The position numbers and the translations under genes are program-made. A stretch of 64,000 nt of DNA from Candidatus Paceibacter sp. (GTDB lineage Bacteria; Patescibacteriota; Patescibacteriia; S139-126): assembly GCA_020724865.1 (NCBI GenBank), contig DYGA01000001.1, positions 89,438 to 153,437 of the forward strand, given 5' to 3'. Under the pieces are notes generated by a model. That model did no database searches. It worked only from the letters and a program-made list of their open reading frames with translations, and was not told the origin of the DNA. Of this stretch, positions 15,190-48,709 are shown piece by piece. Each line of letters begins with the position of its first letter. The first letter of the stretch is position 1.

Positions 15190-15477
15190 TTAATTTTCTT
15201 TAACTTTCAAAGCGTCTTTTAAAGTTTTGCCAGCCTTAAACTTTGGCACTATTACACTTGGAATTTTCATTGGTTCATTTGGTTTTTGCGGATTAACACC
15301 CATACGAGCATGTCGGTTACGAGCAGAAAAAGTACCAAAACCAGTAATTGTTACTTCGTTGCCAGCTTTCAAAGTGTCGATGATTAGTTCAACCATTGAA
15401 TTTACTAAATGCTCGGTTTCTTTTTTTGATATACCAGATTTATCTGATAATTTTTGGATAAATTCTATTTTGTTCAT
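15190..15477 (-). CDS. hup: DNA-binding protein HU
   Basis: MNKIEFIQKLSDKSGISKKETEHLVNSMVELI… and the GFGTFSARNRHARMGVNPQKPNEPMKIP arm region. Confidence 0.9.
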   Translation of the reverse strand: MNKIEFIQKLSDKSGISKKETEHLVNSMVELIIDTLKAGNEVTITGFGTFSARNRHARMGVNPQKPNEPMKIPSVIVPKFKAGKTLKDALKVKEN

Positions 15478-15504
15478 AATTTCACCTCCCTCTTTTAATA
15501 ATAA

Positions 15505-26552: not shown

Positions 26553-26810
26553 ATGGGCAATATTATCATCGGTCTAATTATGGTTCTTGTTGGTTTTTTA
26601 TTAGTTTGGAAAACAGCATGGTTGGTCAATAATTTTGGTCGTATTGCTTGGTTTGAACAACACCTGCATACCATGGGCGGTTCTTGGCTGGCTTACAAAT
26701 TATTCGGCATTTTGTTTATAATTATTGGATTACTGGTTATGACTAATCTTCACCAACAAGCCGCTTCGGCAATTCTTACACCATTATTTGGTCGCGGTTT
26801 ACAAAAATAA
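26553..26810 (+). CDS. Small membrane protein (2 TM), hypothetical, embedded in the tRNA cluster
   Basis: ORF with two clear hydrophobic helices. Confidence 0.4.
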   Translation: MGNIIIGLIMVLVGFLLVWKTAWLVNNFGRIAWFEQHLHTMGGSWLAYKLFGILFIIIGLLVMTNLHQQAASAILTPLFGRGLQK

Positions 26811-26815
26811 TAAAG

Positions 26816-26891
26816 GGGCCCGTAGCTTAGCTGGTAGAGCGCCTGCTTTGCAAGCAGGAGGTCAGGAGTTCAAATCTCCTCGGGTCCACCA
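26816..26891 (+). tRNA. tRNA-Ala (anticodon TGC) with a G3:U70 pair
   Basis: gggcccg-ta-gctt-agctggta-gagc-g-cctgc-ttTGCaa-gcagg-aggtc-aggag-ttcaaat-ctcct-cgggtcc-a-cca. G3 pairs with U70, the AlaRS identity element. Confidence 0.85.
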
Positions 26892-27107
26892 AAGTTGATT
26901 AGTTACCTAGCTTGACTACTCACCACTATAACAACAAGCGTTAAGTTATAATTTTATTCACAATAATTTTTTTAAAAAAAACCGCCAAAGTTTAATACAT
27001 AAAAAAATATTTTTATATTTTTTATTTAATAAAAAGAATTTAACAATTCTTTTTATTTTTTTATTTGTAAAGTTTTCCACACTTGCTTTTACTTGACTAA
27101 CAAAAAA

Positions 27108-27116
27108 TGGTATAAT
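27108..27116 (+). promoter_or_regulatory. Extended -10 promoter TGGTATAAT upstream of the Lys-rich mini-gene
   Basis: TGnTATAAT consensus. No good -35 is needed for this promoter class. Confidence 0.4.
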
Positions 27117-27239
27117 AAATACGAAATTATTTATTTTAAATAATTTGATTCAAAAAATTTTACAATTATTTTCAATAAATAAATTTTAATATTAATTGAG
27201 GTCTCGTGCGCCTCATAATCCCAGGGAGGAGGTGATAAT

Positions 27240-27338
27240 ATGGCAAAAAAGAAAGTTAAAAAAGCTGCAAAAAAGAAGGTGGCAAAAAAGAAAGCTGCTC
27301 CAAAAAAGAAAAAAGTAGCAAAAAAGAAAAAGAGATAA
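27240..27338 (+). CDS. 32-aa Lys/Ala-rich basic peptide MAKKKVKKAAKKKVAKKKAAPKKKKVAKKKKR (not in ORF track; below length cut-off)
   Basis: Strong SD GGAGGAGGTG 6 nt before the ATG, a stem gaggtctcgtgcgcctc before the SD, and a terminator (cccac…gtggg + TTTTT) at ~27361-27392. Confidence 0.5.
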   Translation: MAKKKVKKAAKKKVAKKKAAPKKKKVAKKKKR

Positions 27339-27455
27339 ACTTTTCACTCTTCACTAAAAACCCCACTACATGACGTGTGGGTTTTTAGTTTATATAATTT
27401 TAAATTATTTTAAAAACTTAAAATTTTTTTATTTTAAATTTTATACTAATATTAG

Positions 27456-28727
27456 CTAAAATAATTGATTTTGTTTGGGCTTTATTTGCAATTTTTCTGC
27501 TGCAGAAAAAATTTTTATTTTACCGTACTCGCCATCATAACCCGGTTCTACGCTTAATTTATTTTCTCTAACCCTTCTAATTCCAATTGGTAAAAGTGGA
27601 GAATATTTATTCAAATTTTCCAATTCGTCATTTGTCAAATTTATTAAGACATTAAATTCAGAACCAAAATTTTTTATGATCTCAAAATAAATATTTTGTA
27701 CTTTTTTGGCTTGCCTGTTTTGAATTGACAAACATTCGGCAATTATTTTGTCTAATTCAACCATCTTTTTAAAACCTGGCTTATGAGGTGGCAAATAACC
27801 ATAATCACGATCAGCTAACTCCTCAACACGATACTGCACGCCAACAGTTAACGGTTTTTGACATTTTGGACAAATACCTTTATTGTGCTTGGTTTGTTGT
27901 GGTGATAAAGCTATTTGACAATCCCGGTGACCATCAAAATGATAACGCCCCTCTTCGGGATAAAATTCAACAGTGTATAAAAATTTATTGACATCCTGTT
28001 GTTTCAAAATACGGATTAGTTCGTCGTAACTAAAATCTTGAGGCATTATTTCAAACACATTTGCTTCGCGACCAATATTTTGCAAAGAATGAGAGTCAGA
28101 ATTTGAGATTAATATATATTTATCCAAGGCAGATACCTGATAATTCATCAAAGGATCTGAAGAAAGACCAGTTTCTAAAGCAAATATATACGGCGCCATA
28201 TCTTCGTAGCATTCCTCTACATTATTAAAACCTGATTTGGAACCAAAAAGCGAAAACCAAGGCGTCCAAATGTGAGCCGGTATGACTTCGATTTTCTCAT
28301 CCACGGTTTTTGCCATCTCTAAAAAATCCCGATCAGACATGCCTAAAATTGGCCGACCGTCAGAGTGCAAATTTATTCCGTGATCTAATAATTTTTTATT
28401 TAATTTTTTTACGGCGGAAATATTTGGAGCTAAGACAATATTGTGGACTCTTCTAGTTTTTTCTCCTTTTTTATAAATAAAAGATAGTTCAGTGGTAAAA
28501 ATAAAATAAACTTCTGCATCACCTGTTTTCAAGGTATAAAATCCGCCACCATTATCTATTAATCTTTCTTCGCATTCCTTAAGCCAAATTGGGTGAGTAA
28601 AATCTGCAGTGGTGAGTAAATTTACGCCCTTAATTTTCCCCCACTTAGCTAAATTTTCCAGAGTCAACTCTGGAGAACAAGCCCGGCTAAAACGAGAGTG
28701 ATTATGAATGTCAGCTACTATACGCAT
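27456..28727 (-). CDS. PHP-domain protein of the TIGR00375 / endonuclease Q-like family
   Basis: N-terminal MRIVADIHNHSRFSRA… PHP-type His motif and a Zn-ribbon-like GICPKCQKP segment. The EndoQ assignment is recalled family knowledge, not verified by search. Confidence 0.5.
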   Translation of the reverse strand: MRIVADIHNHSRFSRACSPELTLENLAKWGKIKGVNLLTTADFTHPIWLKECEERLIDNGGGFYTLKTGDAEVYFIFTTELSFIYKKGEKTRRVHNIVLAPNISAVKKLNKKLLDHGINLHSDGRPILGMSDRDFLEMAKTVDEKIEVIPAHIWTPWFSLFGSKSGFNNVEECYEDMAPYIFALETGLSSDPLMNYQVSALDKYILISNSDSHSLQNIGREANVFEIMPQDFSYDELIRILKQQDVNKFLYTVEFYPEEGRYHFDGHRDCQIALSPQQTKHNKGICPKCQKPLTVGVQYRVEELADRDYGYLPPHKPGFKKMVELDKIIAECLSIQNRQAKKVQNIYFEIIKNFGSEFNVLINLTNDELENLNKYSPLLPIGIRRVRENKLSVEPGYDGEYGKIKIFSAAEKLQIKPKQNQLF

Positions 28728-28920: not shown

Positions 28921-29032
28921 AGTTCCCGCGCCGACCTACTTTCCCCAGATGAGTATCATCGGCGCTGATAGGCTTAACTTCCGTGTTCGGAATGAGAACG
29001 GGTGTGGCCCTATCGCTGTAGGCACGGGAACT
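28921..29032 (-). rRNA. rrf: 5S rRNA
   Basis: Minus-sense agttcccgtgcctacagcgatagggccacacccgttctcattccgaacacggaagttaagcct…ggcgcgggaact. Helix I closes the ends. Confidence 0.9.
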
Positions 29033-29079: not shown

Positions 29080-32234
<3,155 letters not shown>

Positions 32235-32554
32235 TATTGGCTAATCTTGTGTCAGTAAAAACTGCATTGACTTACTTCAAACTTAGATTAATTTTTAATT
32301 TGCAATCGTTGCTCGTCACAAAAAATTTCTTTACAATAAAATTTTTTCTAACGACCAATTTGTTTATTTTTTTTCAGAGAAACAAAAAACCGCTCTTTAC
32401 AAGCGGCTGGCAGTTTTTTAAGACAACTAAAAATACCTATCCGCTTGTTTTTTGGTTTAAGGTTAAAAGTATTTTCATATATTTCGTGCTTAAGCAGTAT
32501 ATATTATATTTATATTTTTGACAAGTAGTGGATGTGGAAAAACTATATATAAAT

Positions 32555-46885: not shown

Positions 46886-48370
<1,485 letters not shown>

Positions 48371-48416
48371 AGTGAGAATTGATTGATCTCAAAATATGAG
48401 ATCTGACTCTCAAAAG

Positions 48417-48450
48417 AAATGACTTAATGTTTCTCTACACTTTTTAGTTG
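48417..48450 (-). promoter_or_regulatory. 16S 5' leader processing-stem arm (pairs with 46750-46782)
   Basis: See the complementarity described for 46750-46782. Confidence 0.65.
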
Positions 48451-48631
48451 TCAAAATGCATTTTCTAATCTGTGATTTAAGACTAGAAAAAACAGAGACA
48501 CTTAAAATTGTTTAAGTATCACTGTTTTTTCTCGTCCTGATTTGGACAATACAATATCAAATTTTAAAATTTACTATGCTTGGGGAATTAACTTAATTGT
48601 TAGCGAAAATATCTAAAATAATCGCTTTATA

Positions 48632-48660
48632 ATAATAATTAAATAAAAAAAACTTGTCAA
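48632..48660 (-). promoter_or_regulatory. Sigma-70-like promoter for the standalone 16S gene (TTGACA-17 nt-TATTAT)
   Basis: Minus-sense TTGACAagttttttttatttaatTATTAT, ~265 nt upstream of the 16S 5' end. Confidence 0.5.
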
Positions 48661-48709
48661 GCCCACCAAAAACAGAATTTTTTTATAAAAAAACTTACAT
48701 AAATTAATA

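Follow-up and report, generated by a model that had tools for sequence, protein, structure and literature searches.

A conserved micro-gene for a lysine-rich polycation, missed by annotation, in Parcubacteria-like Patescibacteria

The window analysed here, a stretch of 64,000 nucleotides (nt) of contig DYGA01000001.1 of Candidatus Paceibacter sp. (assembly GCA_020724865.1, positions 89,438 to 153,437, forward strand), contains a genuine, self-contained protein-coding micro-gene that was missed by annotation and is conserved at one syntenic position among relatives. The open reading frame (ORF), located at 27240..27338 (+), starts with ATG, comprises 32 codons, ends at a TAA stop and encodes the peptide MAKKKVKKAAKKKVAKKKAAPKKKKVAKKKKR; a preliminary description of the sequence had proposed a mini-gene for a Lys/Ala-rich peptide of 32 amino acids (aa) at exactly this position. 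The peptide is composed of 19 Lys, 7 Ala, 3 Val and one each of Pro, Arg and Met, which makes 20 of the 32 residues basic and gives a net charge of about +20. It lacks Asp, Glu, aromatic and strongly hydrophobic residues, and also His, Thr and Asn. No other ATG-started ORF of at least 20 codons in the 64 kb contains at least 40% Lys plus Arg. The explanation that fits best overall, and that we consider probable while leaving real room for others, is that of a real micro-gene, built for high output, whose product is an abundant and sequence-nonspecific binder of polyanions.

Relatives were fetched via two flanking anchor genes, the convergent PHP/MJ0043_C gene (PHP gene below) and an upstream ORF of 85 aa; L-numbers denote the fetched loci, 182 in total. 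Syntenic mini-ORFs of 20-69 codons, starting with MAKKK, MAVKK or MVKRK, were found in ten further distinct loci. Their products are 32 aa long in L161/L162 (MAKKKVKKAAKKKVAKKKAAPKKKKVAKKKKK), 31 aa in L001, 26 aa in L163 and likewise in L164/L165 (in the latter pair MAKKKVKKAAKKKVAKKKKVAKKKKR), 24 aa in L167 (MAKKKVKKATKKVAKKKVAKKKKK), 28 aa in L035 (MAKKKKAKKTKKTKTTRKAKKGGKKKKR) and 20 aa in L169 (MAKKKAKKKQVKGKKKGGKK). The longest are those of L168 (35 aa, MVKRKRKAAPKKKVVRKKKKAAPKKKVVRKKKRKK, in which KAAPKKKVVRKKK occurs twice) and L166 (69 aa, starting with MAVKKKKKKVAAKPKKR, with KVAKKKPAKRK twice). The 85-aa ORF, whose protein is 55-98% identical in these relatives, was the richer anchor for mini-ORF loci. 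Among the 160 loci obtained with the PHP gene, Lys-rich mini-ORFs occur only in L001, L035, L006/L083 and L033. The clade that carries the mini-gene consists of Parcubacteria-like Patescibacteria, and the shared gene order is tRNA-Leu, tRNA-Val, the 85-aa ORF, tRNA-Ala, the mini-gene and the convergent PHP/MJ0043_C gene.

Selection acts on the translated frame, as follows from an excess of synonymous changes, a strict phase of the G residues, the openness of a single frame and the size of the indels. Between the window and L164, 18 codons are identical, 8 differ synonymously and none non-synonymously; the corresponding numbers are 14, 11 and 1 for L001 versus L164, and 12, 10 and 2 for L164 versus L167. 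A single G in an A-rich tract yields AAG (Lys), AGA (Arg) or GAA (Glu). In frame 0 of nine lineages such single-G purine codons comprise 66 AAG, 22 AGA and no GAA, and Asp and Glu are absent altogether. Frame 0 is open in all relatives and the frames +1 and +2 gain stops. Within the ORF, indels come in multiples of three, namely 3 and 18 nt, and the 3' untranslated region (3'UTR) shows a 1-nt indel relative to L001. At greater distance (L035, L166-L169) the nucleotides diverge while the ORF, the MAKKK start, the composition and the Shine-Dalgarno (SD) sequence are kept. Loss of the frame in relatives had been set beforehand as the observation that counts against a protein; the reading frame turned out to be conserved in the syntenic relatives, with synonymous changes far outnumbering non-synonymous ones.

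The codon choice of the mini-ORF likewise suggests tuning for translation. Of its 19 Lys codons, 7 (37%) are AAG, compared to 102 of 1062 (9.6%) in the 27 long ORFs of the window, and AAA-AAA accounts for 2 of 13 Lys codon pairs, compared to 112 of 131 in those ORFs. As a consequence of the alternation of AAA and AAG the A-runs stay at 6 or fewer, the longest being 6. A gene for tRNA-Lys(CUU) is present.

The mini-gene is equipped with a complete set of expression signals. The extended -10 element, the stem-loop, the SD, the ATG and the separate terminator that had been listed in the preliminary description were all located, and every part is conserved in the relatives. A consensus scan identified a sigma-70-type promoter at 27088..27116 (+) with 10 of 12 matches plus the TG: the -35 element TTTACT (27088-27093) is followed by a 17-nt spacer and the extended -10 element TGgTATAAT (27108-27116). 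The arrangement TTTACTTGAC...TGnTATAAT is kept in L001, L161-L164, L167 and L168, and transcription would start near 27123. Further upstream an A/U-rich intrinsic terminator at 27031..27066 (+), with the stem AAAAAGAAUU/AAUUCUUUUU followed by a U-run, ends the tRNA unit and would insulate the mini-gene from upstream transcription. This terminator folds in the window and in the relatives, with stems that differ among the window, L164, L166, L167 and L168. The AT-rich structured leader (27123..27187, +) forms a long imperfect hairpin, the exact model of which is uncertain, and the leaders of the more distant relatives are different AT-rich hairpins. The transcript 27120-27395 folds with z = -2.74 relative to shuffles.

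The SD at 27223..27236 (+), AGGGAGGAGGUGAU, is complementary to the 3' end of the window's own 16S rRNA (GGAUCACCUCCUUUCU). The predicted duplex with the 16S tail has an energy of -22.0 kcal/mol, and the GGAGG core ends 7 nt before the ATG. When compared with the 42 ORFs of at least 150 aa, each taken at its best candidate start, the mini-gene ranks first of 43; the strongest SD among the others has -13.0 and the median is -5.6 kcal/mol. The only comparable gene in the window is that for HU (15205-15477, -), which has an SD of -18.2 kcal/mol and the same layout, GGGAGGTGA-4 nt-ATG, as the mini-gene, and the duplex is near nil for bL19 (+1.0), the 85-aa ORF (+1.3) and the PHP gene (-0.6 kcal/mol). 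The sequence GGAGGTGA-4 nt-ATG is kept in all close relatives. In the 1.2 Mb of loci plus the window, GGAGGTGA followed by an ATG after 2-7 nt precedes only 19 distinct ORFs, nine of which are mini-ORFs, and a scan of viral contigs for the signature of SD, ATG and Lys gave no match. Within this sample a strong SD seems to be the privilege of a few genes, among them that for HU (15205-15489, -), in a gene set that is otherwise poor in SDs.

Downstream of the ORF lies an intrinsic terminator (27354..27388, both strands; CUAAAAACCCCAC...GUGUGGGUUUUUAG, -17.8 kcal/mol) that is common to the mini-gene and the convergent gene of 423 aa. It is bidirectional, since an A-tract precedes and a U-tract follows it; the stems of the relatives differ and the same tracts are found there. 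A simple consensus scan for terminators missed it (0 sites) because of a bulge in the stem. Of the proposal that the mini-gene encodes a real and highly expressed small protein, the first part is borne out by the coding evidence given above, and the second, at a very high level of expression, is what the conserved promoter, SD, terminator and codon signals suggest.

Judged from the sequence, RNA-level roles for the leader and the 3'UTR exist beside the coding role. Immediately 5' of the SD a hairpin, UGAGGU-7 nt-GCCUCA (27197..27215, +), pairs an SD-like arm with an anti-SD-like arm. The arms do not vary, while none of the seven loop bases is the same in the window and L001; the sole compensatory change, which turns the closing U.G into U-A in L164 and L167, is one-sided. 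In the consensus fold derived from the alignment, the anti-SD-like arm is paired not to the upstream arm but to the real SD, and constrained folding places the two leader states about 0.4-3.6 kcal/mol apart, with a sign that varies by lineage. The GAGG/CCUC hairpin probably tunes translation of the mini-gene by competing with the alternative, SD-sequestering fold, its stems being too invariant for proof by covariation. Such an arrangement resembles the switches of SD, anti-SD and anti-anti-SD found in RNA thermometers and ribosomal-protein operators, in that CCUC can pair with either the GAGG decoy or the real SD at similar predicted energies. It differs from them in that the leader has no Rfam match and the stem is backed by one one-sided change. 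The combination of a very strong SD with a nearby 5' structure is also reminiscent of 5' stabiliser hairpins of the STAB-SD type.

Between the stop codon and the terminator a pyrimidine-rich motif is found (27340..27353, +; CTTTTCACTCTTCA, consensus TTTCACTCTTYAC), which is kept in L001 and in L161-L168 and is non-coding in view of the 1-nt indel mentioned above. Specific pairing of this motif with the SD is not supported, as the duplex energies are no better than those of composition-matched shuffles in 8 of 8 lineages.

Six nt upstream of the -35 element lies a DnaA-box-like 9-mer (27073..27081, +; TTTTCCACA, consensus AAAAAGTTWTCCACA). The DnaA-box consensus is TTWTNCACA, which both TTTTCCACA and TTATCCACA fit exactly. 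In 11 of 12 lineages the start codon of the mini-ORF is preceded, at a distance of 103-169 nt, by TTWTCCACA (in L169 the 9-mer is TTATCCACA, in L006 it is inverted, and L033 is included), for which the background density, counting both strands of the 1.2 Mb of loci, is 0.05 per kb. It is positional conservation alone that argues for the box: the window contains 3 exact copies of TTTTCCACA versus 1.24 expected, 65 copies with one mismatch versus 54, and 4 exact copies of TTWTCCACA in the 64 kb. The same 9-mer is found upstream of the 23S rRNA gene, both in the window (32533-32541, -, between the promoter-like sites TTGACA-17-TATAAT and then TTGTCA) and in L003 (370-378, +, the 23S gene starting at 641). 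Thus in 2 of 2 lineages that cover the region the 23S gene is preceded by the 9-mer (TTTTCCACA or TTATCCACA) at a distance of about 270-310 nt, near consensus-like promoters. The presence of the box upstream of both genes suggests a cis-element that is common to the mini-gene and the 23S-5S operon.

Two other roles of the box were discarded. It is not a general element of stable-RNA promoters, since the promoter region of the 16S gene (48372-48700, -) lacks it, and it does not mark a replication origin, as there is no enrichment or cluster of boxes in the window and the cumulative GC skew has no turning point. No dnaA gene is present within the 64-kb window. The position of the mini-gene box, about 45 nt upstream of the predicted transcription start, would be typical of a regulator site and in this respect resembles a DnaA-box operator, from which it differs by lying outside any cluster or origin and by also accompanying a 23S rRNA gene.

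Further copies of such boxes were encountered. A second 9-mer that fits the DnaA-box consensus, TTATTCACA, is found 119 nt upstream of the first (26954-26962, +), in the AT-rich spacer after tRNA-Ala. Intergenic TTATCCACA boxes occur just upstream of promoter-like TTGAC..TATAAT sites in other Patescibacteria, namely in L131 (2073-2081, +), in L069 (1759-1767, -) and, inverted, in L013 (around 5302) and L102 (around 4322); several of these boxes adjoin the PHP gene. The box in L069 is followed by no ORF of at least 90 aa within the next 450 nt, and the L069 locus has no Rfam match.

On the + strand the local gene order is bL19, tRNA-Leu(GAG), tRNA-Val(UAC), the 85-aa membrane ORF (26553-26810), tRNA-Ala(UGC) (26816-26891) and the mini-gene. 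The mini-gene had been placed between tRNA-Ala and the rRNA unit; tRNA-Ala is indeed the gene directly preceding it, but the convergent PHP/MJ0043_C gene (27456-28727, -; 423 aa) separates it from the 5S (28923-29029, -) and 23S (29084-32224, -) rRNA genes. The rRNA genes are unlinked, the 16S gene (46887-48371, -) lying 14.6 kb from the 23S-5S unit. The latter is followed on the same strand by the PHP gene, an order that is also found in L003. The 23S gene, with 3141 nt versus the 2925 positions of the model, contains about 200 nt extra. The window is AT-rich (about 32% G+C), and the nearest relatives of its genes are metagenome bins of the Patescibacteria/Parcubacteria type.

The mini-gene is practically invisible to databases and gene callers. 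Its peptide matched 0 families in Pfam-A and 0 in NCBIfam, 0 PDB chains at E up to 10 and none of 1.84 billion representative proteins, all of them searches that are weak for this peptide owing to the composition correction of HMMER. The RNA has no match in Rfam 15 above the gathering score, and at E<=10 only two antisense matches at chance level. In an exact look-up of nine versions of the peptide among 15 billion proteins only the call in L168 was present, as a nameless singleton, and a search with this entry found only itself. The public L168 call is 41 aa long and begins at a false ATG that lies inside the SD (MGGGDIM...). Such an ATG just before the SD (ATGGGAGGAGGTGATAATATG) gives a false in-frame start (MGGGDN/IM...) in L164 (3140-3238), L165 (759-857) and L168 (1388-1513). 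Among the fetched contigs the gene callers called the mini-ORF only in L166 and L168, and in the literature no description of such a gene in Patescibacteria was found.

With respect to function, the basic residues are spaced by Ala, Val and Pro alone, and residue types on which a fold could be built are absent. The drift in length from 20 to 69 aa, by in-frame gain and loss of Lys-rich repeats (internal tandem repeats are found in L166 and L168), together with the charge of about +20, makes it likely that the product acts through charge and composition. By analogy, the peptide most likely coats DNA and/or rRNA in the manner of a histone H1 tail, polyphosphate being an equally possible partner. 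The preliminary description had offered both an H1-like or nucleoid-associated tail and a ribosome- or RNA-associated peptide; composition and charge agree with both, which are the leading candidates and are not separated by the data. The strong SD that the mini-gene has in common with HU fits a nucleoid role, and the box in common with 23S, the tRNA/rRNA neighbourhood and the Ala/Lys-rich extension of Parcubacteria uS19 (see below) fit a role at the rRNA or ribosome.

Lys/Ala/Pro-rich tails bearing AKKA or AAKK are necessary and sufficient for sequence-independent DNA binding in HupB and HbhA (PMC10665949), and AlgP and PhaF carry KPAA repeats, the AlgP tail resembling the H1 tail and AlgP being found also on polyphosphate granules (PMC9239181). 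The mini-gene peptide has in common with the tails of HupB/MDP1, HbhA, AlgP and PhaF the low complexity in Lys, Ala, Pro and Val, the expansion and contraction of tandem repeats and the absence of acidic residues. By the motif definition of PMC10665949 it contains AAKK once (residues 9-12) as well as AAPKKKK; AKKA is absent and AKKKA is present. The known tails extend a folded domain and belong to proteins of about 200-350 aa, whereas the product of the mini-gene is the tail alone, with 20-69 aa. The mini-gene moreover has its own promoter, SD and terminator, and homology to these proteins is not demonstrable. The HU protein of the window itself is tail-less.

In the mechanism that we propose, the mini-gene would be strongly transcribed from the extended -10 promoter that is preceded by the TTWTCCACA box. 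The structured leader and the strongest SD of the window would ensure high translation, and the bidirectional terminator would end the transcript and serve the convergent PHP gene as well. The peptide would then be, in effect, a free-standing H1-like Lys/Ala/Pro tail that coats and condenses DNA, and maybe rRNA or polyphosphate.

The alternative that deserves most attention, which we nevertheless regard as unlikely, is that the product is a small ribosomal or ribosome-associated protein, i.e. an analogue of bS22/eL41, bL37 or THX, or a detached uS19 tail, made in step with rRNA. bS22 (with its analogues eL41 and mS38) is also a protein of about 30 aa with about 60% Lys plus Arg (61% in bS22), encoded by a stand-alone tiny gene that is routinely left unannotated, as in Borrelia, and it is predicted in more bacteria (PMC10618245). 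The Ala/Lys-rich C-terminal extension of about 25 aa on uS19, specific to Parcubacteria (PMC9297842), agrees in lineage, composition and length, but is fused to a ribosomal protein instead of being encoded by a separate gene; no uS19 gene lies within the 64-kb window. The presence of the TTWTCCACA box in the 23S promoter region and the location amid tRNA genes, bL19 and the 23S-5S unit point in the same direction. The single strong SD amid genes that are poor in SDs is reminiscent of the autoregulation of rpsU in Bacteroidia, a similarity that serves as a lead only (PMC13000457). However, membership of the bS22 family was rejected: the size (32 aa) and the content of at least 55% Lys plus Arg agree, but the signature MPxGxKRK...THK...NRHKKK of Borrelia and Flavobacterium is absent, neither Pfam nor NCBIfam gives a match, and the length is not fixed. 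BLASTP with bS22 sequences from the supplement of PMC10618245 gave E = 1.2 over 8 residues for Borrelia and no alignment for M. smegmatis. The 3.5-fold range in length, 20-69 aa, is found among relatives in which the anchor protein is 55-98% identical, whereas Borrelia bS22 is near invariant, with one residue change across the genus (PMC10618245). A protein that fills a fixed pocket in the rRNA should not gain and lose repeats, which makes a fixed-pocket ribosomal protein the less likely reading.

Lys/Arg-rich mini-ORFs with KRKPAKRKTA-type repeats were also found in L033 (5840-5953, +; 37 aa) and L006 (5405-5575, -; 56 aa; identical to the L083 sequence). Both have a TTTTCCACA box upstream and lack a strong SD at normal spacing, and they are possible analogues only. 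The L033 mini-ORF has as neighbours genes that, read by eye, we take to encode a ribosome hibernation factor and SecA; that it follows the former would agree with a ribosomal role.

Three further readings are improbable even when taken together. That the functional product is an RNA, either a small RNA or a cis-acting element, with the ORF incidental or secondary, is very doubtful. In its favour are the structured transcript, the hairpin and the non-coding 3'UTR motif, both of which are conserved, and the high nucleotide conservation of the unit, to which we return below. On the other hand, distant relatives keep the coding features listed above while their nucleotides diverge, a G phase of 66:22:0 and the excess of synonymous changes are unexpected for a non-coding A-rich RNA, Rfam gives no credible match up to E = 10, and it is not evident what an optimally spaced SD of 14 bp in front of an ATG would do in an RNA that is not translated. 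Hardly any weight is given to a regulatory mini-ORF, i.e. a leader or sensor peptide that reports the supply of Lys-tRNA, or stalls, and thereby controls another gene. Consecutive Lys codons, five in-frame A-AAA-AAG heptamers, the bistable leader and a terminator 16 nt after the stop would suit it, but there is no same-strand gene downstream and the terminator is shared with the convergent gene. The interspersed AAG codons and the tRNA-Lys(CUU) gene moreover argue for smooth translation rather than stalling, and the length of the peptide varies widely. Just as little credit goes to an exported cationic peptide of the antimicrobial or cell-penetrating type, directed against a host or competitors. 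Its small size and strong positive charge would suit this, as would the host dependence, possibly as an episymbiont, that is generally presumed for the lineage; yet the peptide lacks a signal peptide and has neither a hydrophobic nor an amphipathic face, genes for a transporter, immunity or maturation are absent next to the mini-gene, and the promoter box is shared with the rRNA operon. A type I toxin or membrane micro-protein was rejected, since the peptide has no hydrophobic run, its longest apolar stretch being AA.

Several observations weigh against the nonspecific polycation that we favour. Compared to L001, identity amounts to 99% in the ORF and 91% in the leader, versus 35% at the four-fold degenerate sites of the neighbouring PHP gene (27 of 78), the protein of which is 81% identical between the two. 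The constraint thus reaches beyond the peptide: the nucleotide conservation of the unit exceeds what a peptide selected for composition only would need, and RNA-level functions may matter equally. Several lineages agree in all of the 18 N-terminal residues, a hint of some sequence specificity. The mini-gene is confined to a narrow clade, about 12 of the 182 fetched loci having a mini-ORF, and deeper relatives of the anchor genes have none nearby; in the case of the 85-aa protein, homologues of at most 51% identity have other neighbours. The box found also at the 23S gene is as compatible with a link to the ribosome as with a function in the nucleoid. Finally, the functional assignment comes from composition and analogy, and searches with hidden Markov models (HMMs) are blind to low-complexity peptides, so that they can demonstrate neither homology nor its absence.

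The nonspecific polycation can be extended to a more specific proposal, which we put forward as a speculation that is more likely wrong than right by a wide measure. The peptide would be a free, tail-only polycation, an encoded counter-ion, the supply of which is coupled to rRNA synthesis and/or replication status via a DnaA-box-like operator that its promoter shares with the single 23S rRNA operon; its translation would start from the strongest SD of the genome. It would coat rRNA or the chromosome in trans, replacing missing ribosomal-protein mass, polyamines or nucleoid proteins, and its output would be tuned by the decoy-SD/anti-SD switch.

The ultra-small Patescibacteria (CPR) represent a large share of bacterial diversity and are almost uncultured, with reduced ribosomes and few known nucleoid proteins. 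In these organisms a conserved gene with signals for high expression escapes both gene callers and HMM searches, which implies that inventories of their cell biology miss at least one probably abundant component. Genes that are dropped by standard pipelines can be recovered by searching for an ORF of biased composition together with its SD and ATG. The box in common with 23S and the SD-competing hairpin are candidate regulatory elements in a group in which the control of promoters and translation is essentially unstudied. By analogy, the mini-gene would belong with the small polycationic nucleic-acid-binding proteins, what is new being its unusually complete and conserved regulatory shell. Should the peptide indeed turn out to coat DNA or rRNA, bacteria would for the first time have a free-standing equivalent of protamine or of the histone H1 tail, and there would be a handle on how the charge of nucleic acids is neutralised in Patescibacteria cells.

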